Shown piece after piece: positions 1,982 through 52,904 of a DNA stretch of 64,000 nt. Position 1 is the first letter of the stretch. Each line of letters opens with the position of its first letter. A program made the translations under genes and the position numbers. Origin of the DNA: Enterococcus phage 9183; the sequence record MT939241.1. The stretch is one strand, 5' to 3'. A model generated the notes under the pieces. It searched no databases. It was given only the letters and a program-made list of their open reading frames with translations, and was not told the origin of the DNA.

Positions 1982-3919
1982 TTGGAAGTTATGTTCTACT
2001 CACCACGAGAAAGTAAACAATATGCGGCTCACCTATGCTATAAGTTAGGAATTAAGTATACGATAGCAAAAAAGATAGCTGAAAATAGTACGGCAATGCA
2101 ATCATTATTCGATGCTTATCGTACAGGAGACGAAGCTGATTATGATGATGCTTGGAATAATTTGAAAGAGATCGATGGAATTGGCCCTAAACGTTCTACT
2201 CTTTATTTGGAAAAATATTTTGAAGACCCTTATCGTTCGATCAATTGGGAAATGTTCAATATCCTTCAAAAGTATCAACAAGTAACAGGTTGGACAGAAA
2301 ATAGAATGTATGATTTAGCTAGACGAATTGATGATCCTTCTAAAATTTGGTTAGTCTATCTTAACGATGAATCTATTACATTACCAATTGCTATTGAAAT
2401 TTATAAGATGACAACGAAAGATGAGCCTTATCTTCAGTCACAAACGATTCAATACTTTACGCAATACACAGATCTTAAAGCAAGTCAATTCCAACATAAT
2501 AATTTAACTTCACCCAAGTTCTTATTCAACAAAGATTTAAATGAACAATATAAATTATTTATGGAAATTGAAGATGTCGTAATGCTAAGAGAGACTGCGG
2601 AAGATTACGTTGCTATCTTAAAGTTTATGAGAGAAAATAAGAATGAAACTTTAGAACTTAGTCTTAATGATATTGATATTTCAGATTTTGGAGAAGATCA
2701 AGTCGTAGCTTTTGAAAAATTAAAAGATAAACGAGTAATGTTGCTTACAGGTTATGCAGGCACTGGTAAAACTTATATGCTTGATAAATATATATCTGCA
2801 TTGGCAGGACATAGAATTTATGCTTGTGCTTTAGCGGGTAAAGCTGTAAAGAACTTTGTTGATGCAATGTCAGTAGAGAGCATGAGAAAGATTAATCAAT
2901 CGACTATCGCAGGATTGCGTTACGTTCCAACTTATAAAGATTATTTTTCTAAATCGTCAGTCGTTATCGTCGATGAAGCAAGTATGATTTCAATGTCAGA
3001 CTTAGCTTATATTATTCGATTAATGAATGAAGATACGAAATTAATTTTGATCGGAGATATTAATCAATTGCCAGCGATTCAATTGGATGTTCTTAATTGG
3101 CTCGTTAGTGATAATGAATTAGAAAAGGTAACTCTTGATATTCCTAAACGACAAGCTGCAGACTCAGGTATCTTTAAGGATAGTATGTCTATCATTAATA
3201 AAGAGATCCCAGCTTTTGACACTGAAGAAAGTCAAGCTCGTATAGGACAAACATATGTTCAACAGATCATTGCTGAAAATATGGATGCAGATATTTTCTT
3301 GACGACAACGAATCAAGTTAAAGATACGATCAATAACATTAAAGCTGAAGAGGTTCGTCAAATTCCAAATCATGCTGTTTTTCAAAATAAGATTTATAAA
3401 GAGACAGTTGATTTTCATGAAGGCTATCAAATTATGATTGGAAAAAATAATGTTGACACAGGTTTAATGAACGGAGATATTTTCGTTATTAATTACGAAG
3501 GTCATTTAGTAGATCCTTATACTTTAGAAGCTGCAAAAGATTTAGATGGGAAAATCTTAAAGATTGGGGAAAATCGTGATTATCCTGATGCAGGCTTTGG
3601 AGGTAACACAAAAATATTGGATACGACTGCTCATAATGTTCAAATGGCATTTGCTATCACTACCCATAAGAGTCAAGGTAGTACAATGAATAAAGGTGTA
3701 ACTGTTATGGGTCCTGGACCATTAGCAACAAGAAATCTTTTATACACTGCAATCACTCGTTTTAAAGAGAAACATGTTTTATATTTACCTGATCGTGCAT
3801 TGTTGGAACAAATCTTACAAACTGGTGTTCAATATCAAAAATTAAGCAAAGATGAACAAGATATTTTGATCAAGAAAGTTGAACAAGAAAATGAAAAACA
3901 GGAGGAAGAAAATGAATAA
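1982..3919 (+). CDS. RecD2-like ATP-dependent helicase with N-terminal HhH region
   Basis: GYAGTGKT Walker A; VVIVDEASM; LILIGDINQLPAI; THKSQGST; LYTAITRFK. Confidence 0.75.
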   Translation: MEVMFYSPRESKQYAAHLCYKLGIKYTIAKKIAENSTAMQSLFDAYRTGDEADYDDAWNNLKEIDGIGPKRSTLYLEKYFEDPYRSINWEMFNILQKYQQVTGWTENRMYDLARRIDDPSKIWLVYLNDESITLPIAIEIYKMTTKDEPYLQSQTIQYFTQYTDLKASQFQHNNLTSPKFLFNKDLNEQYKLFMEIEDVVMLRETAEDYVAILKFMRENKNETLELSLNDIDISDFGEDQVVAFEKLKDKRVMLLTGYAGTGKTYMLDKYISALAGHRIYACALAGKAVKNFVDAMSVESMRKINQSTIAGLRYVPTYKDYFSKSSVVIVDEASMISMSDLAYIIRLMNEDTKLILIGDINQLPAIQLDVLNWLVSDNELEKVTLDIPKRQAADSGIFKDSMSIINKEIPAFDTEESQARIGQTYVQQIIAENMDADIFLTTTNQVKDTINNIKAEEVRQIPNHAVFQNKIYKETVDFHEGYQIMIGKNNVDTGLMNGDIFVINYEGHLVDPYTLEAAKDLDGKILKIGENRDYPDAGFGGNTKILDTTAHNVQMAFAITTHKSQGSTMNKGVTVMGPGPLATRNLLYTAITRFKEKHVLYLPDRALLEQILQTGVQYQKLSKDEQDILIKKVEQENEKQEEENE

Positions 3920-4460: not shown

Positions 4461-4525
4461 GACAATTTTTTGTATGATTGTTTTATTATTTGATGTAATT
4501 GCATATTATATAAAAAAGTTAAAGA

Positions 4526-4553
4526 GATAGGTTTACACTAACCTATCTTTTTT
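4526..4553 (+). terminator. Intrinsic terminator (8-bp stem gataggtt/aacctatc plus T-run) whose loop carries the -35 of the next promoter
   Basis: hairpin and TTTTTT read directly. Confidence 0.6.
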
Positions 4554-4560
4554 ATATAAT
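4532..4560 (+). promoter_or_regulatory. Consensus phage promoter
   Basis: TTTACA at 4532-4537, 17-nt spacer, TATAAT at 4555-4560. Confidence 0.65.
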
Positions 4561-4595
4561 ATAAACATAAAATTAAAGCAAAAGAGGTTAAGAAA

Positions 4596-11831: not shown

Positions 11832-12071
11832 ATGAAAGTTATCATATATTCAAGGAATAAATGTATGCAATGTAAAATGATGAAAAACTACTTCACTGGA
11901 TTAAAAATACCTTTTCAAGAGGTAAATGTAGACGAGGATGAGGTAGGCATGAACGAATTAAAAATGTTAGGATTTCAATCAGTGCCTGTGACACATATAG
12001 TAAATGAAGAAGGTCACCATTGGATCAAAGGTTTTGCACCACATAAAGTTTCTAAATTATTGAAATTTTGA
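11832..12071 (+). CDS. nrdH: NrdH-like glutaredoxin (CxxC redoxin)
   Basis: N-terminal CMQC motif in an ~80-aa thioredoxin fold; C-terminal motif HxWxGF. Confidence 0.6.
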   Translation: MKVIIYSRNKCMQCKMMKNYFTGLKIPFQEVNVDEDEVGMNELKMLGFQSVPVTHIVNEEGHHWIKGFAPHKVSKLLKF

Positions 12072-12073
12072 GG

Positions 12074-12100
12074 CAGTAAGTTTACACTTACTGTCTTTTT
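12074..12100 (+). terminator. Terminator (cagtaag/cttactg stem) whose loop is the TTTACA -35 of the next promoter
   Basis: read directly; T-run tcttttttt. Confidence 0.6.
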
Positions 12101-12109
12101 TGATATAAT
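12081..12109 (+). promoter_or_regulatory. Consensus phage promoter
   Basis: TTTACA, 17-nt spacer, TGATATAAT. Confidence 0.65.
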
Positions 12110-12145
12110 ACTAAGGTAATTGAAGATTAAAAAGGAGAAATTGAT

Positions 12146-13232: not shown

Positions 13233-13255
13233 TAGCTCTAGTTTTTCTAGAGCTA
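13233..13255. other. Perfect 9-bp-stem hairpin (tagctctag/ctagagcta) in the 5' leader between promoter and CDS
   Basis: read directly; followed by TTTTA. Confidence 0.5.
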
Positions 13256-13277: not shown

Positions 13278-14126
13278 ATGGCTTTTAAGTATGAAACCTA
13301 TATCAATAGTAAAGAATGGTTGGAAAAAAGCGAACGATATTTGAAAGAATATCCAATTTGTGAAATTTGTCACAAGCATAAAGCCACGCAAGTACACCAC
13401 ACTAGCTATAAGAATATAGGAAAAGAAAAACGAAGAGATCTTTTAGGTGTTTGTGATCGTTGTCACACTCATTTACATTTACTTCCACCTAAAATCGAAG
13501 ACAAAGTTAGATTAGTAAAAGCTGAAAAATTGATCGAGACTTTCATTCAGTATCCCGCATTAAAAACTTTGGCCTTTAATGAACTAATGGAAAAGTATTA
13601 TCCAGGAGAAAATTACATGATCGATTTAGCTTCAAGAGTTTGTGACGACACAGCTTTCTTTATGCAAAACGTCATGGAAATGTTAGATGCTGACAGTGAA
13701 GAAAAAGGCACAGATTTAATTGAGGAATTATCTCGTATCGTTTACTTGCTTAAAATGAAAGCGGGTAAAAATAAAATGCTTCATGATAAAGAAAAAGCTG
13801 AACGCAAACGTAAGTATGAAAATGGTGATTATGATTACATGTTCACTACGACAACGACAGATAAGGTAAAACAAACTGTTGATGAAGTAATTAAAAACAG
13901 ACGTAAGAATTTTTGCTTAAGCGAACTTGCAAGTCGCCCAATTTTAGGTGAAGCAATGCGATGGGCAAATATAACTTTTTACGAAGGGCAAATGTTCTTT
14001 AAACGTTCAGGTATTGTTACTAGTGCTCAATTTTATCTTGAAGCCGTAAAGAAAGGTTTTGATCAAGATTTATTTGAACATTTAGGAGGTACACTTAACG
14101 ATTTAGTTGGTGATGTTGATGCTTGA
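13278..14126 (+). CDS. HNH endonuclease-domain protein
   Basis: CEICHK...HH...N...CDRCH zinc-finger/HNH motif at the N-terminus. Confidence 0.55.
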   Translation: MAFKYETYINSKEWLEKSERYLKEYPICEICHKHKATQVHHTSYKNIGKEKRRDLLGVCDRCHTHLHLLPPKIEDKVRLVKAEKLIETFIQYPALKTLAFNELMEKYYPGENYMIDLASRVCDDTAFFMQNVMEMLDADSEEKGTDLIEELSRIVYLLKMKAGKNKMLHDKEKAERKRKYENGDYDYMFTTTTTDKVKQTVDEVIKNRRKNFCLSELASRPILGEAMRWANITFYEGQMFFKRSGIVTSAQFYLEAVKKGFDQDLFEHLGGTLNDLVGDVDA

Positions 14127-20259: not shown

Positions 20260-20285
20260 TGAAAAGGTTAAGCTGTTTTCCTAGT

Positions 20286-20310
20286 AAGGTTTACAGTTTA
20301 ACCTTTTCTT
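20286..20310 (+). terminator. Hairpin aaggtt/aacctt plus a T-run, overlapping the -35 of the next promoter
   Basis: read directly. Confidence 0.5.
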
Positions 20311-20318
20311 GATATAAT
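20290..20318 (+). promoter_or_regulatory. Consensus phage promoter
   Basis: TTTACA, 17-nt spacer, TGATATAAT. Confidence 0.65.
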
Positions 20319-20350
20319 ATTAAAGTAAAAAATTAAAAGGAGATGTATTT

Positions 20351-35391: not shown

Positions 35392-35420
35392 AAGGTTCGT
35401 TTACATAGCGAACCTTTTTT
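35392..35420 (+). terminator. Intrinsic terminator (aaggttcg/cgaacctt plus T6) whose 9-nt loop is the -35 TTTACA of the next promoter
   Basis: read directly. Confidence 0.7.
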
Positions 35421-35428
35421 GATATAAT
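35400..35428 (+). promoter_or_regulatory. Consensus phage promoter
   Basis: TTTACA, 17-nt spacer, TGATATAAT. Confidence 0.65.
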
Positions 35429-35459
35429 AATATTGTAAGTAAAATAAAGGAGGAAATAA

Positions 35460-38400: not shown

Positions 38401-39314
38401 GAGAATTAATGATTAAGTTTGTTGAATACGTTGAACCTCTTAAAGAAAAATTGACGACCGCGGTTATTCCAAAAATAATTGATCGCGTGCCTGAAACTTA
38501 TAAAGAAGGCGTAACTGCTTACATGTTTCTTAAGGAAGTAAAAGGTAAGAAAAATCATACACAATATTCGGATCATTTCTTTGATAATTATGAAAAATTA
38601 TGTAAAGAAAAAGTAACGAAAAAATATCCAAATTCATATTATTATGATGATAATGGTGAATTAGTAATTGAAGTAAAAGTACTTGAAAAAGTAGTAAAAG
38701 ATAAGATGGAACCAATTAAAGAATGGCTTAAGACTGAAGAGGCTTTACGTGCTGAAGCTGCATTAAGACGAACAGCGTTTTGGAATAAGTATTGTCAAGG
38801 AACGATTTCTCATTGGGAAATGGAATCAATTACGTTCTACATTTCAAATCACGAACTTAATGAATATCCACTTGATTCATACTTTAACATTGCGTCATTT
38901 AAAGATATGCCAAGAGAACCTGAAATTATTGGTTGGTCAAATGGGAGAGGAAGAAAATGGCCTCAATTAAAAACGGAGGTCATTGCGGGAACCGTCATTG
39001 ATACTTTACCTAAGAAGGGTATCGTCACAATTATTACACAAACTGGAGTCGTCGATGTTCGTGTAGGAAAAGGAAAGTATCAACATTATAATAAGAAAAT
39101 AATGGTTGGCGAAGGTAAAGAACGAGTAAACATTGATGATACTTGGTGGAAACGTGGAAATATGATTGTCGTCGTTGGTTATCGTCGTGAAAATGATTTT
39201 TATGCTAATGCAAGAAATAGTTCATATCAACATTCAGTGATGCTGATCAAAGGTCACGATGGTAAGAAAGTATTCGTTCAACAGGAAAAGAAAAAAATAG
39301 GAGAAGATTATTAA
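35460..39314 (+). CDS. dnaE: DNA polymerase III alpha subunit (DnaE-type) with N-terminal PHP domain
   Basis: PHP motif SIHNHSYYS...VLSDHETIAG; 1284 aa; polymerase core region conserved. Confidence 0.75.
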   Translation: MSWFSIHNHSYYSNFRLRDATNAPEDIIDKAIELGLTGIVLSDHETIAGAPKFLDYAKKLEKENKLPEGFKVGVGNEAYLIDRKYEQAMIDQEKVKYYHFIMLAKNQRGFEFLKKQTALAWSHRIYSRGMERVPTYKQDLVELMKEYKGDVVASTACIGGELPQLILKLEEATLNGNDNEVKEIKQEIHNFIHFLVNTFGHENVFFELQPSYQEEQKIVNKWLPTIAEAYKIKCIVTTDAHYLTLAQQEFHKQYLQASEGEREVEQFYATTYIFSYDELLEYFDQELLDVLVENTNIIKDMIEEINYKHETVIPNSHIPSFKPNMEIMKKIDEEKYPNIYKMMNSKVLEDRYYHHRVMQGFIDKKQEFNDENLSRIDLEYSELEEISEQLGQPMTSYFLAMTEFVDIMWEHSLVGVGRGSAVCYYTNYLLDIVQLNPIKYDLPYWRFLSREYVGEFPDIDVDAQGSQRASIIEGVKERFGHENVLNIGTYTTEGARAASLTACRALGLDPDTAQNITNMIPSDKGNPWPLHDAFFGNEEENRKPDKAFINEVNNYEGLQELMLQSQGLVSGRGQHASGVVVFPNGYTSMNTMMKTSNGLPITQWDAGTTEAAGGIKYDFLSINALDRIKSAMDMLLKDGKIEWQGSLRDTFNKYFHPDVLEMDADKMYDMLFDGEIISAFQFEAKTGRQALEKINARNFNQLVAANSLMRLSCEGEQPIDKFIRYKNDLSNWDKDMDEYGLTEDEKKVMHELLDARYGVCETQEAIMQIAMHEKVAKYNLREAKGLRKASAKKKPEIQEKQKKLFFEKGTANGTSTNLLNYIWNECYVPTFGYSFSAPHVAAYTMILMIEMNIAYRYGVHYWKAACLNVDAGILDGEVEGGTRYGKIAKALSGFREDVVPPSVNKSDIGFTPDSKTGKIMYGLKPIVGMNGKLARQIIENRPYSNIKDFIEKNLENGDLTKGKMVNLIKSGIFDELYANRRELMIKFVEYVEPLKEKLTTAVIPKIIDRVPETYKEGVTAYMFLKEVKGKKNHTQYSDHFFDNYEKLCKEKVTKKYPNSYYYDDNGELVIEVKVLEKVVKDKMEPIKEWLKTEEALRAEAALRRTAFWNKYCQGTISHWEMESITFYISNHELNEYPLDSYFNIASFKDMPREPEIIGWSNGRGRKWPQLKTEVIAGTVIDTLPKKGIVTIITQTGVVDVRVGKGKYQHYNKKIMVGEGKERVNIDDTWWKRGNMIVVVGYRRENDFYANARNSSYQHSVMLIKGHDGKKVFVQQEKKKIGEDY

Positions 39315-39316
39315 GG

Positions 39317-39342
39317 CTGTGTTTACACAGTCTTTTCTTCTT
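39317..39342 (+). terminator. Hairpin gctgtg-ttta-cacagtc plus T-rich tract, carrying the next -35
   Basis: read directly. Confidence 0.55.
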
Positions 39343-39350
39343 GATATAAT
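39322..39350 (+). promoter_or_regulatory. Consensus phage promoter
   Basis: TTTACA, 17-nt spacer, TGATATAAT. Confidence 0.65.
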
Positions 39351-39380
39351 ATTATCGTAAATAAAAATTGGAGGAATGTT

Positions 39381-39990: not shown

Positions 39991-40019
39991 TTTACACATA
40001 CTTTTTCCTATGATATAAT
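39991..40019 (+). promoter_or_regulatory. Consensus phage promoter driving an ORF-less transcript
   Basis: TTTACA, 17-nt spacer, TGATATAAT. Confidence 0.65.
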
Positions 40020-40026
40020 ACTAAAG

Positions 40027-40195
40027 TAGATAAATAGATATACATATTTGTCTGAGGGACTTCGTTAGAAGTTCCGAAGGGCATCAGCTTCGCTGATGTA
40101 TTGCCAAGGTTGTACATATTTTATGTGGTTCCTTACCGAACGAGATAGAACGAAATAGGTAAAAAAAAAAATAGAGGATTTCTCCTCTATTTTAA
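40027..40195 (+). ncRNA. Candidate structured small RNA (~170 nt) between a consensus promoter and a bidirectional terminator; no ORF
   Basis: hairpins GGGACUUC-GUUA-GAAGUUCC (40056-75) and CAUCAGC-UUCG-GCUGAUG (40082-98); terminator at 40161-40200; longest ORF 20 aa with no RBS. Confidence 0.5.
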
Positions 40196-40200
40196 TTTAT
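40161..40200. terminator. Bidirectional terminator: A11, atagagga-tttc-tcctctat, T-run
   Basis: read directly. Confidence 0.7.
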
Positions 40201-41422: not shown

Positions 41423-41699
41423 AGGCGAAGTTTATGTAGGTAAAGTAGGTACGTCACAAATTTTATTCGAGGTTGCTTTTGCCTACGATAACGATACTTA
41501 TAGCGCAGCACACGCTATTAGACTTGACAACGAAATCAATAATGAAAGCGTCGTTGTCTTTAATCATTCAAACGATGTTGTGATTTCATTATTTGACGAA
41601 GGAAAAGTTCGTGAGGCTACAACTAGAGAAATAATGATTTATGCTGAAGCTGTAAAACTTTACGATAAATTTTATAATGAAACGAGTTTACGAAAGTAA
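41409..41699 (+). CDS. Hypothetical protein
   Basis: ORF. Confidence 0.5.
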   Translation: MMLNKGEVYVGKVGTSQILFEVAFAYDNDTYSAAHAIRLDNEINNESVVVFNHSNDVVISLFDEGKVREATTREIMIYAEAVKLYDKFYNETSLRK

Positions 41700-41715
41700 C
41701 TCGTTTTGATATAAT
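41681..41715 (+). promoter_or_regulatory. Hairpin (aacgagtt/aactcgtt) overlapping the upstream stop codon, plus promoter variant (TTTACG, 18 nt spacer, TGATATAAT)
   Basis: read directly. Confidence 0.5.
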
Positions 41716-41743
41716 ATAAAAAGATTTAAGAAGGAGAGATTTG

Positions 41744-44179: not shown

Positions 44180-44531
44180 TTACTTTGCGTTTTTTGCCGC
44201 CATATTCATTACAGCTGCCCTATTGTCTTTTGGTTTCTATAAGCAAAATATAGATGAAAAGATTAAGCAGCTTGAAGACGACAAGACGACTCTTATCTAT
44301 GAAAATAAAGAACTTAAAAAGAAAGATAATTATTTAAGTGACACATATGATGATTGGAAAGAGTCTGCTGGAGAAAAATTAGGATATGGTTCTATCTTTC
44401 AGCTTGAAGGAATTGATAGTGTAAAAGATACGACAATTCTTACAGTTAAAGACACAAAATATGGTGGCGAATATATTATAATAACAAACAGCGATCGTTC
44501 GTTTATGCAAATAACAGAGAGAAAAAAATAG
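44148..44531 (+). CDS. Membrane-anchored hypothetical protein
   Basis: N-terminal TM helix. Confidence 0.45.
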   Translation: MNFLRESKISDYFAFFAAIFITAALLSFGFYKQNIDEKIKQLEDDKTTLIYENKELKKKDNYLSDTYDDWKESAGEKLGYGSIFQLEGIDSVKDTTILTVKDTKYGGEYIIITNSDRSFMQITERKK

Positions 44532-44553
44532 AGGGATTACCCCTCTATTTTTA
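44528..44553 (+). terminator. Intrinsic terminator (tagaggg/ccctcta plus T-run)
   Basis: read directly. Confidence 0.65.
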
Positions 44554-44585
44554 TACATATTTTAGTAAAAATGTACAAAATTTTG

Positions 44586-44614
44586 TTTACAAGTCACTCA
44601 TTGATTGATATAAT
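44586..44614 (+). promoter_or_regulatory. Consensus phage promoter driving an ORF-less ~290-nt leader
   Basis: TTTACA, 17-nt spacer, TGATATAAT. Confidence 0.6.
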
Positions 44615-44620
44615 TATTAA

Positions 44621-44908
44621 GTGGTCAAAATTAATAAAGAAATTAAAGATCCTCGGAACTTTATCCTTCCTACTTAAACAACATTTGATCGCTTTCATAC
44701 AATTCATTTAAGGTTTTAAAATCAACCATTTTAAGTATAAACTTTTCAATTAAAAAACATTAATAAAAGAAAATTTTCTATATACATTGTTCTTAATAAG
44801 GTTTATAATTAATATGTTGGTTAAAAACACAACAAAGCATTACATAAAGAATCAGTCTTGAAAACCTAGCTTTTAAAGAAGAAAGCCAGATTCAGGTGGC
44901 TATTTTTT
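44621..44908 (+). ncRNA. AT-rich ~290-nt non-coding transcript/leader ending in an intrinsic terminator (agcca-gattcagg-tggct plus T6), directly upstream of the sigma-factor gene
   Basis: no ORF over 15 aa with an RBS; terminator at 44884..44908. Confidence 0.45.
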
Positions 44909-44945
44909 ATGCACAAAAATACTATATTAAAGGTGGAAAAATAAC

Positions 44946-45575
44946 ATGACAAAAACATTCTTAATGACAACGAAAACAGGTGCAGTGCAAAAAGATTTTA
45001 CATTTGAAGAATTATACACCCAGTTCTTTAAGATGATTCAAAAAGAAACTTGGTCAATGGTTAAAGTTTATGGAAACATTATGAAACGAGAAGAAATAGA
45101 ACAACAATTCACGATTGAACTTTGGAACTCATATGAAAAATATGACATCAGCCACGGAACTTGCATTTCAACTTACATCTATAATCGTTTCCAAAAAGCA
45201 AAAAGAGATCTTCTTTATCCACTTATTGGTTCAAGTAAAAGCAAATGGGAAAAGAAAAACACAACTTCATTATCAGCAAAACATAATGAAGATGATCGTA
45301 ATGATCAGTCTAATAAGATGTTTACAAACGATAAGACATATAACCAAATAGTTAGCGCAGAAAATCTTCTTGTGAGTCAAGATTTAATTGAAGCAATCAT
45401 AAGCGTTTATAATAGAGAAGAAGATCTTGATCTTATTTTAATCTTGATTGATAAGAAGACTTATTCAGTCGCAAATTATGCAGAAAAATGGGGAATTTCA
45501 CGTGTAGCAGCCAATAATAGATTAAGAAAAATTAAGAAAGAATTGGTTAATGTGTTGGAAGATTTCAAGAATTAA
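44946..45575 (+). CDS. Phage sigma-70-family (ECF/SPO1 gp28/gp34-like) sigma factor
   Basis: region 2 block FTIELWNSYEKYD...STYIYNRFQKAKRDLL; region 4 HTH YAEKWGISRVAANNRLRKIKKEL. Confidence 0.6.
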   Translation: MTKTFLMTTKTGAVQKDFTFEELYTQFFKMIQKETWSMVKVYGNIMKREEIEQQFTIELWNSYEKYDISHGTCISTYIYNRFQKAKRDLLYPLIGSSKSKWEKKNTTSLSAKHNEDDRNDQSNKMFTNDKTYNQIVSAENLLVSQDLIEAIISVYNREEDLDLILILIDKKTYSVANYAEKWGISRVAANNRLRKIKKELVNVLEDFKN

Positions 45576-50763: not shown

Positions 50764-50792
50764 TTTACACTTTCTCCTCCTTCGTATATAAT
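50764..50792 (+). promoter_or_regulatory. Consensus promoter with -35 inside the palindrome GTAAACaGTTTAC
   Basis: TTTACA, 17-nt spacer, TATATAAT. Confidence 0.55.
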
Positions 50793-50819
50793 ATAAACAT
50801 ATATGAAGGAGGAATTTTT

Positions 50820-51230
50820 ATGTATATTTTATTAAAAGATTTATTGAAAAACGCTGAAGGGAATTTCTTATATCTAACACTTGATAATAGTGTATGTGTA
50901 TTCTCTTCAAAAGATGAAGCTATTATGAAATATGGAGATAAAGAAGTTATAAATATTGATACGTGTGTAAATAATTTTGGTGCTAGTTTGGTCGTTAAAG
51001 TTAAGACTCATAATGATGTTGAACTTGAACGTAAAATGACTAAAAGAATTGAAAGTCAAGTTGAGCTTTTGGAAGGGTGGCGTAGCGTCACTTCTGATGT
51101 CATGTTTAAATTATTGGTTAACAATTATATTGAAGGATTCACAGATGCGCTTTATATTTTAGGACTCGACTATTCTAATTTACTTAAAGATGTTGAGAAA
51201 ATAAAGAAAGGTGATATCATTGAGAAATAA
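50820..51230 (+). CDS. Hypothetical protein
   Basis: ORF with RBS aaggagg. Confidence 0.5.
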   Translation: MYILLKDLLKNAEGNFLYLTLDNSVCVFSSKDEAIMKYGDKEVINIDTCVNNFGASLVVKVKTHNDVELERKMTKRIESQVELLEGWRSVTSDVMFKLLVNNYIEGFTDALYILGLDYSNLLKDVEKIKKGDIIEK

Positions 51231-52430: not shown

Positions 52431-52904
52431 ATGAAAAAATTAAACGAAATGACAGCAAAAGAACTTAAGGAAATGGCGAAAGAACAAAACATCAAAAATT
52501 GGTGGAAAATGAATAAGGAGCAACTTATCGTTGCTCTTTCTCAAGGAGACAAAGTTGAAGAAACTAAAGAGGAAAATACTAAGGAGGAAACACAAATGAA
52601 TAAAGAAGAAAACATCTCAATCATCGAAAAAGTTTACCAAATGTTAGAAAATGAAAGTGATGAAGTTAAACGACAAATCGCAAATAAACTTCTTAAAGAT
52701 ACTAAGAAGAAAAAAGAAAAAATTGAAATCGTCGTTGATGATGAAACATTCACTTTCGAGTCATTACGACAAGCACACATCACTCTTAGCGAGAAATATG
52801 GTTTTACTTACTATGGTATTAAAGCTTTACTTGAAGGTAATGAAAATCATAAAGGTTACAAAGCAATGATGAAAGATCATAAAGTAACAGGAAAATTCTT
52901 ATAA
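52431..52904 (+). CDS. Rho-N/SAP-like domain protein
   Basis: N-terminus MTAKELKEMAKEQNIKNWWKMNKEQLIVAL resembles the Rho termination factor N-terminal (SAP/HhH) motif. Confidence 0.4.
   Translation: MKKLNEMTAKELKEMAKEQNIKNWWKMNKEQLIVALSQGDKVEETKEENTKEETQMNKEENISIIEKVYQMLENESDEVKRQIANKLLKDTKKKKEKIEIVVDDETFTFESLRQAHITLSEKYGFTYYGIKALLEGNENHKGYKAMMKDHKVTGKFL

Follow-up and report, generated by a model that had tools for sequence, protein, structure and literature searches.

In Enterococcus phage 9183 (record MT939241.1), the gene for a predicted homologue of the sigma factor SigN is preceded by 414 nucleotides (nt) in which there is no gene (44532-44945). This gap is among the largest in the 64,000-nt stretch of DNA that we analysed (the window). 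It lies between a 127-amino-acid (aa) open reading frame (ORF) on its 5' side and, on its 3' side, the 209-aa sigma ORF, which the authors of the record for Enterococcus phage Planchet (OX422066; Denvervirus, Andrewesvirinae) call an ECF sigma factor. The window is ~97% identical to Planchet, and the stretch of the Planchet record that matches the sigma leader is unannotated. Up to ~53.1 kb nearly all genes are on the + strand and have replication and nucleotide-metabolism functions, and the structural and lysis genes are in the opposite orientation.

The same leader occurs in seven near-identical relatives (Planchet, one IMG/VR contig and five Logan contigs) and in one diverged relative, L007 (Logan ERR11532577). 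The L007 sigma protein is 83% identical, and this was the only diverged lineage returned by searches of IMG/VR and protein databases. As the neutral level for comparison we used the third codon positions of the flanking genes, which are 60-67% identical between the window and L007. The features of the locus are as follows.

44524-44552: bidirectional hairpin terminator, stem of 12-13 base pairs (bp), -10.9 to -15.5 kcal/mol, T-runs on both sides
44586-44614, + strand: predicted promoter P1, TTTACA (44586-44591), 17 nt, TATAAT (44609-44614); with the TG, TGATATAAT
44625-44775, + strand: spacer between P1 and P2, no constraint detected
44774-44822, + strand: promoter-like element P2, -35 TATACA (44781-44786), 17 nt, -10 TATAAT (44804-44809)
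44855-44864, + strand: conserved GTCTTGAAAA, 10 of 10 positions identical in L007
44884-44909, + strand: element resembling an intrinsic terminator, AGCCA/TGGCT stem, 8-nt loop, then A, T6 and A
44898-44920, + strand: 23-nt island GGCTATTTTTTATGCACAAAAAT, identical in L007; 3' arm of the hairpin, T-run and 12 more nt
44929-44948, + strand: ribosome-binding site (RBS) AAAGGTGG (44929-44936) through the ATG; AAAGGTGGAAAAATAACATGACAAAA is identical in L007
44946-45575, + strand: sigma factor of 209 aa, SigN/ZpdN family, from homology and gene order

Elements of the sigma leader

A first-pass annotation, made from the letters alone, had described a promoter at 44586, a hairpin followed by six Ts and the start of a sigma gene in this region, and all of these elements are found there. 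The promoter (P1) is indeed of the consensus type: TTTACA and TATAAT stand 17 nt apart, 11 of 12 positions match, a TG is present at 44606-44607 and the predicted start is G44621. Sites with 11/12 matches and a TG number 16 on the + strand of the window, compared to 0.05 in dinucleotide shuffles, and nearly all are located just 5' of a gene, 25-45 nt from its RBS, which argues that this promoter class is real. By sequence P1 is a member of the class, unusual in having no gene directly behind it. Its boxes are invariant in L007 while its spacer varies, and an A-rich stretch 5' of it (~44567-44581) is conserved in L007.

Behind P1 follow ~160 nt that appear to be free of constraint. In bins of 30 nt, the spacer between P1 and P2 is 33-60% identical to L007, compared to the neutral 60-67%, and it contains two 10-nt indels. 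The small genes that VPE25-type phages carry at this position do not resemble it. Decayed genes were rejected as an account of the leader: a tblastn search with small proteins from the same position (VPE25-type, L013, L041 and L046) against three leaders gave nothing below E ~0.1.

The second promoter-like element, P2, scores 10/12 with a predicted start at G44816, and neither TG nor GA precedes its -10. In L007, CTATATACATT, AGGTTTATAATTA and TGTTGGT are identical, and the 10-nt spacer between the boxes has the same length with only 2 of 10 positions matching. Since the boxes are kept around a diverged spacer of constant length, we read P2 as a putative promoter; this pattern is the signature of a promoter and not of an RNA helix. 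An exact copy of CTATATACAT occurs once elsewhere in the window, at the sole minus-strand promoter inside the + strand block. From start to terminator the distance is 289 nt for P1 and 93 nt for P2. The leader of ~290 nt described in the first-pass annotation is therefore right in length but does not form one unit, as its first 160 nt are unconstrained and P2 would give a product of 93 nt.

On its upstream side the region is bounded by the bidirectional terminator at 44524-44552, which is kept in L007 with substitutions in the loop only. This predicted strong terminator would end the upstream operon (dUTPase to the 127-aa ORF) and insulate the sigma region from upstream transcription. In the intergenic regions of the window that contain a promoter, the order is almost always terminator, promoter, RBS. 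The order promoter, terminator, RBS is found elsewhere in the window only at gene 13272, in the form of a short hairpin in its 5' untranslated region (UTR) at 13235. The reversal of the usual order at the sigma gene therefore looks deliberate. The window also contains composite terminator/promoter modules (for example at 4524-4561, 12070-12110, 20265-20319, 35392-35429, 39314-39351 and 41683-41716) with the -35 TTTACA in or near the hairpin loop and the T-run as the promoter spacer; here the end of one unit is the start of the next. No direct repeats of the kind found in replication origins (iterons) are present in the sigma leader region, and no tRNA or tmRNA was found.

The hairpin before the sigma gene consists of AGCCA (44884-44888), the loop GATTCAGG and TGGCT (44897-44901), followed by one A and six Ts (44902-44908), and 37 nt separate the end of the T-run from the ATG at 44946. 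With 5 bp, three of them G-C, and U6 after one A, it has the form of an intrinsic terminator, in which a hairpin containing G+C ends 0-2 nt before the U-run. The simple hairpin has a predicted energy of -6.3 kcal/mol, and an extended form spanning 44854-44901 has one of -10.5 kcal/mol. The other predicted terminators of this genome have stems mostly of 7-12 bp and energies mostly between -9 and -20 kcal/mol; the hairpin is weaker than most of them and stands at the weak end for this genome. The first-pass annotation had called the terminator clean, a description that does not suit a stem of 5 bp with an 8-nt loop at -6.3 kcal/mol.

The leader as a whole is 60.6% identical to that of L007, that is, at the neutral level. 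The P1 boxes, the P2 elements, GTCTTGAAAA, the 23-nt island at 44898-44920 and the RBS are the islands of identity. The hairpin and T-run were thus kept while the leader drifted, which supports a terminator function. Across the sequences all pairs of the simple stem are standard (25/25) and the U-run is invariant. In the fifth pair of the stem, the A-U of the window group is replaced by G-C in L007, a single compensatory change. Among 200 shuffles of the leader, none had a hairpin of -10.5 kcal/mol or lower adjoining a T-run of at least 6/7.

When the RNA starting at P2 was folded, the extended hairpin (AGU-CUUGAA-..-CU-GCUUUU / GAAAGC-AG-UUCAGG-..-GCU, 44854-44901) was preferred over the simple form, and its equivalent in L007 reaches -11.6 kcal/mol. 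GTCTTGAAAA is the 5' arm of this hairpin and pairs with TTCAGG or TTCAAG in the loop in both lineages; its place in the outer helix, which is 97.8% paired across the sequences, would explain why it is conserved. The GGCU of the 3' arm can pair with AGUC, AGCC or a distal AGC(C) in proportions that vary by sequence, and a stem against the U-run is retained in every predicted conformer. The predictions fit the simple and the extended hairpin alike, and a switch between two states appears to be without support.

No promoter-like site of at least 9/12 was found on the + strand between 44902 and 44945, as the first-pass annotation had stated for the interval between terminator and sigma gene. In L007 the stretch from T-run to RBS has a 10-nt insertion and has lost TACTATATT, a possible weak -10, and by this comparison no promoter is conserved there. 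A hidden sigma promoter after the terminator was rejected: there is no host-type site, a candidate late motif (TGGCTATATATTATAGAGA, see below) has no copy in the window at three or fewer mismatches, and TTTTATGCACAAA, with 7 matches in the window against 8.8 expected, is not enriched. An antisense promoter at 44952-44924 (9/12) was likewise discarded, its -10 not being conserved in L007. With no promoter of its own downstream of the hairpin, the sigma gene would depend on read-through for its expression.

The leader transcript had been described as having no ORF. It has no conserved one, but a non-conserved ORF of 15 codons is present at 44814-44861 (ATG 44814, MLVKNTTKHYIKNQS). As a leader peptide this ORF was rejected, since in L007 it has a TTG start with neither frame nor stop kept, in L006 it carries a pair of frame-shifting and restoring indels, and in close relatives its AAGG is changed to AAAG. 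A 46-aa ORF (+ strand) and a 37-aa ORF (- strand) were also set aside; they have no RBS, and the former starts upstream of P1. An ORF of 11 codons (MHKNTILKVEK, 44909-44944, + strand) begins directly behind the T-run, takes in the sigma RBS and has its stop codon 1 nt short of the sigma ATG, and its first 12 nt are the ATGCACAAAAAT island. An AGGTGG that is unique to the window lies 9 nt upstream of it, in the loop and 3' arm of the terminator. In L007 this ORF meets a stop after 6 codons and the Shine-Dalgarno sequence is absent, and it is probably fortuitous.

The sigma gene and its relatives

On its own the 209-aa protein had no match in Pfam or PHROGs. In a tblastn search it matched the sigma gene of the Bacillus subtilis plasmid pBS32 (29.5% identity over 89% of the query, E 2e-14), which we take to be sigN because its position and the published promoter sequence agree. 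Sigma70_r2 was detected in 10 of 13 members of the family (best E 3.9e-6), and the family profile matches FliA region 2 (E 1e-4). An AlphaFold (AF2) model (pLDDT 71) has a C-terminal helix-turn-helix, and its top Foldseek matches are mostly sigma factors, with weak E-values. By homology, then, the protein is a relative of SigN, which is a sigma factor by biochemistry and whose discoverers pointed out a homologue in phage VPE25 (PMC6751061).

The gene order dUTPase, guanylate kinase, RusA, gap, sigma is common to the window, pBS32 and Geobacillus phage GR1, and the gap measures 414 nt, 513 nt and ~700 nt, respectively. The sigN (zpdN) gene of pBS32 has been studied in two papers (Burton et al. 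2019, PMC6751061; 2023, PMC10601692). Its gap contains a strong, SigA-dependent promoter repressed by LexA (PsigN1), a weak SigA promoter (PsigN2) and a SigN-dependent promoter that provides positive feedback (PsigN3) (PMC6751061). We placed PsigN1 ~325 nt from the start codon by means of a LexA-like box at 2086-2101 of the pBS32 sequence (L038). The two regions are thus alike in having several promoters distributed along 300-500 nt, the most distant of them ~325 nt upstream of the start codon, and a gap with multiple promoters therefore looks like a family trait of this sigma gene. They also share a TTTAC-N15-GATAWAA promoter before the sigma gene, the homologous sigma itself, the gene order and a toxic SigN that must stay low.

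In contrast, the pBS32 leader has no terminator, and control there combines an antisense transcript with LexA at PsigN1 and autoactivation at PsigN3. With one mismatch allowed, 44532-44945 contains no LexA box resembling GAACNNNNGTTC. The promoter of the SigN type lies 77 nt before sigN in pBS32 but 325 nt before the phage sigma gene, and pBS32 is a plasmid or prophage-like element whereas the window is from a lytic phage. The sister phages (VPE25, vB_EfaS_140 and vipetofem) and GR1 have a TTTAC-N15-GATATAA promoter before the same gene as well; theirs, unlike P1, is 40-50 nt from the RBS with no terminator between. The VPE25-type phages have a perfect 14-bp palindrome (CTACTGTGGATATG..ATATCCACAGTAG; VPE25, L002, 2933-2966) whose centre falls on the -10 of the sigma promoter. 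It looks like an operator, which would be another way to control the same gene. Published RNA-seq work on VPE25 concerns a relative that has no leader terminator of the kind seen in the window.

A second lineage with a long sigma leader (L039, L040 and L045) encodes a sigma 46% identical to that of the window and has a gap of 413-421 nt between RusA and sigma. In L039 and L045 the leader is ~357 nt, with a TTTACA-17-TATAAT promoter and two hairpins with T-runs: the first is a 12-bp hairpin with T5 (-17.3 kcal/mol) and the second, 58 nt before the ATG, carries T6 (-8.5 kcal/mol). One caveat is that the L039 T-run overlaps a TTTACG with which a poor -10 (TACTAT) 18 nt downstream could pair. The L039 and L045 leaders are 88-96% identical to each other, a value that falls to 78-80% in third codon positions and to 72% in the sequence 5' of the promoter, and the two leaders have no sequence similarity to the window leader. 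A terminator in a long sigma leader may thus have either arisen twice or persisted through turnover of the sequence. An ORF of 13 codons (GTG start, strong AGGAG RBS; L039 2204-2312 and its L045 equivalent) stops 2 nt before the stem of the 12-bp terminator, and 2 of its 13 residues differ between L039 and L045. Its placement resembles the geometry of translation-coupled attenuation.

The exact 20-mer GGCTATTTTTTATGCACAAA was found, besides the phage's own IMG/VR contig, in ~20 stretches of DNA (L015-L037, IMG/VR and metagenome). There it forms the 3' arm and tail of a terminator. Most of these contigs come from staphylococcal temperate phages and have almost the same hairpin, placed between the genes for the prohead protease and the major capsid protein; a smaller group shares the tail but has another stem. 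We judged this recurrence to be chance or convergence on a low-complexity word.

Routes to sigma expression

The most likely explanation, to which we give somewhat better than even odds (about 0.55), is that a constitutively leaky terminator limits the sigma output of tandem promoters. The 414-nt gene-free stretch would be the dedicated control region of a SigN-family sigma gene, shielded by the terminator at 44524-44552, with P1 (44586) and P2 (44781) firing toward the gene. About 40 nt before the RBS both transcripts would reach the weak hairpin and its U6. Termination at this point would probably be the fate of most polymerases and would yield by-product RNAs of ~289 and 93 nt. The read-through fraction would be the only sigma messenger RNA, and the terminator would act as a fixed attenuator that keeps sigma output low and slow. 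We infer that termination occurs and is partial, and that its purpose is control of dosage or timing. The dependence of sigma on read-through, which the first-pass annotation had raised, is consistent with the lack of a promoter after the hairpin, with the preservation of hairpin and T-run and with the terminators in the leader of the second lineage. A rationale for such a brake is offered by relatives of this sigma, which compete with the main sigma factor of the host: SigN is intrinsically toxic, outcompeting SigA, and is kept down by several mechanisms (PMC6751061; PMC10601692).

A leaky terminator of this kind does not explain why two strong-looking promoters should stand ahead of a brake, and several observations weigh against it. 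The simple stem is short (5 bp, 8-nt loop, -6.3 kcal/mol), and 6.5% of leader shuffles (n = 200) reach -6.3 kcal/mol or lower. The covariation amounts to a single change, seen in one diverged sequence, and is equalled by 115 of 500 shuffles. The inner helix of the extended form is disrupted in most close relatives, and the fold ensemble is heterogeneous, with three possible partners for the 3' arm. A terminator alone does not account for the 12 conserved nt after the T-run (ATGCACAAAAAT). Lastly, the sigma genes of VPE25-type phages, GR1, pBS32 and L041 are preceded at 40-80 nt by a promoter and lack a terminator of this kind, and the arrangement would therefore be lineage-specific.

Attenuators in the leaders of bacterial operons (trp, pyr, T-box and riboswitches) allow a gene to be expressed only by read-through past an intrinsic terminator. 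The sigma locus is similarly arranged, with a promoter, a non-coding leader, an intrinsic terminator before the RBS and a gene that would be reached by read-through. In contrast to those systems, no sensor (conserved leader peptide, aptamer or antiterminator) was identified in the window leader, and the control may be constitutive. In phages, read-through or antitermination controls delayed-early and late genes, as with lambda N/tR1 and Q/tR', HK022 put and T4. The T4 delayed-early system and the others have, like the window, a terminator between early promoters and the regulator of the next stage of transcription. On the other hand, no nut-, qut- or put-like element or antiterminator gene was recognised in the window, and the controlled gene is a sigma factor.

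One alternative is that read-through at 44908 is regulated, by an antiterminator protein of phage or host, by exchange of the sigma on the polymerase or through coupling with translation, so that sigma synthesis is timed and not just damped. A plain terminator needs neither GTCTTGAAAA upstream of the stem nor the 12 nt after the T-run, yet both are conserved; the 3' arm has alternative partners; and in L039 and L045 the 13-codon ORF abuts the 12-bp terminator stem, as in translation-coupled attenuation. The phage genes also include two annotated as transcriptional regulators and one whose product has a Rho_N domain. However, this is unlikely, as no mutually exclusive antiterminator was found (the alternative folds use the same 3' arm and the stem stays by the U-run) and none is recognisable among the annotations. 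The 15-codon ORF is conserved in neither start codon, frame nor length, and its AAGG is lost in close relatives. Nor does any Rfam family match at gathering scores in the whole window; a permissive scan gave only chance, terminator-driven matches, and the sole leader-family match was the Thr leader at 17.4 bits (gathering score 55, E 1.1). The antitermination or attenuation suggested by the first-pass annotation thus lacks a conserved antiterminator, a conserved leader peptide and an Rfam family.

Another possibility is that the leader makes independent small RNAs, the 93-nt RNA from P2 and the 289-nt RNA from P1, with a function in trans, and that sigma expression by leakage is secondary. The 93-nt RNA has a conserved promoter-like element and a terminator of its own, the GUUGGU of its predicted start region is conserved, the fold z-scores are moderately negative (-2.3 and -2.4) and the phage has another apparent RNA that runs from promoter to terminator with no ORF (40027-40200). 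We find this somewhat harder to credit than regulated read-through. In the unpaired 5' half (44823-44852) only 57-67% of positions agree with L007, as expected under neutrality, and there is no seed-like island. Against the 79 translation-initiation regions of the phage, the best duplex has -17.2 kcal/mol compared to a shuffle mean of -19.9 kcal/mol, and 87.5% of shuffles match or beat it. There is no Rfam match, and the sigma gene would have no promoter if there were no read-through. The suggestion of an independent small RNA thus fares poorly on the low conservation of its 5' part and on a complementarity to phage RBS regions no better than that of shuffled controls.

Least probable is that the hairpin is no terminator but an element for RNA stability or processing, or a protein-binding site in DNA or RNA, within a long 5' UTR that is read through nearly in full: the stem is short and the loop large, a small hairpin and then a T-rich run also occur in the 5' UTR of gene 13272, the imperfect palindrome TTTTTTATGCACAAAAA could be an operator and VPE25-type phages would control the same gene by a 14-bp palindrome over the promoter, but the invariant T6 is separated from the stem by a single base (at the 13235 hairpin there are no more than four Ts), every predicted conformer has a stem adjacent to the U-run, and terminators of canonical form occupy the corresponding place in the second lineage.

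Further loci of the phage were noticed. At 39991-40200 (+ strand), ~175 nt that contain neither an ORF nor an RBS lie behind a TTTACA-17-TGATATAAT promoter; five hairpins are predicted in this stretch, which ends in a bidirectional terminator (40168-40193). The minimum free energy of this stretch is -56.3 kcal/mol compared to -32.3 +/- 4.0 for shuffles (z = -5.9). It matches no Rfam family and was found only in Planchet, and on these predictions it is a much stronger candidate for a non-coding RNA than the sigma leader. At 50764-50820 (+ strand) the spacer of the promoter at 50764 (CTCCTCCTTC) is paired with the RBS of gene 50820 (GAAGGAGGA) in a hairpin of -19.9 kcal/mol. This hairpin could mask the RBS only in transcripts from upstream and not in those begun at the promoter 50764. 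The Rho_N protein has 157 aa (52431-52904, + strand) and contains only the N-terminal domain of Rho (Pfam Rho_N, E 2e-7). It is labelled 'putative Rho' in Planchet and is not a full Rho.

SigN-type promoters and their possible reader

Of the 28 intergenic promoters in the window, 19 (from 1920 to 50038, P1 included) have the form TTTACA-N14-TGATATAAT. All 19 have the GA before the -10, TGATATAAT with its invariant A after the TG, and a distance from TTTAC to GATA of 20-21 nt. The promoters that depend on SigN consist of TTTACGTTT, ~11 nt and (C)AGATATAA(A/T), with 20 nt from TTTAC to GATA (PMC6751061). By sequence the class of 19 resembles this experimentally defined pBS32 consensus. It precedes counterparts of genes in the SigN regulon (DNA polymerase III, gyrase/topoisomerase and nucleotide enzymes) and also the helicase/primase operon, the dUTPase/guanylate kinase/RusA operon and further genes. 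The pattern TTTAC-N15-GATAWAA stands directly before the sigma gene in pBS32, GR1, the VPE25-type phages and L046. P1 fits TTTAC-N15-GATATAA/GATAWAA but can equally be read as an extended -10 promoter of the host type, to which it conforms almost perfectly (17-nt spacer, TG, 11/12). In position and sequence P1 would be the counterpart of the autoregulatory PsigN3.

A lytic phage must begin with the host sigma factor. That the SigN-like sigma of the phage reads the class of 19, P1 among them, is a tentative idea that we hold to be rather doubtful on promoter resemblance, though less so than regulated read-through. If true, P1 would be autoactivated and P2 would be a weak starter read by the host, giving a positive-feedback loop on sigma. 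The leaky terminator would then set the threshold of the loop and might produce a bistable takeover from host sigma to phage sigma. A switch to middle or late transcription, as the first-pass annotation had envisaged, stays uncertain, since the SigN regulon comprises replication and nucleotide genes and P1 itself fits the SigN pattern.

Two further kinds of promoter were noticed. One is a class in the window that has no GA (8016, 8377, 27401, 50332 and 52141), three members of which (8377, 27401 and 52141) have in common a conserved downstream ATATATAAT(A/C)AATAAACAAA. The other is found in Planchet (L044, OX422066), where two exact copies of TGGCTATATATTATAGAGA (2984-3002 and 13461-13479), each after TATAAAAAAAT-N6-ACA, lie before the packaging and head genes and before the tail genes, with 0.02 expected by chance. 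TGGCTATATATTATAGAGA is a candidate late promoter.

Phage sigma factors time the redirection of host transcription, and the control of their synthesis is known for very few. The kind of control proposed here is a familiar one, of which the sigma leader would be a new instance, and its interest comes chiefly from the link to SigN. That link, through the promoter consensus, provides a directly testable idea of what the sigma factor transcribes. Planchet-type phages belong to an Enterococcus group discussed for phage therapy, and the 414-nt gap should not be annotated as empty. If the terminator works, Denvervirus and one other lineage would use attenuation where their relatives use an operator or LexA, and the locus would be a small natural case of control modules that can be exchanged before a single regulator.

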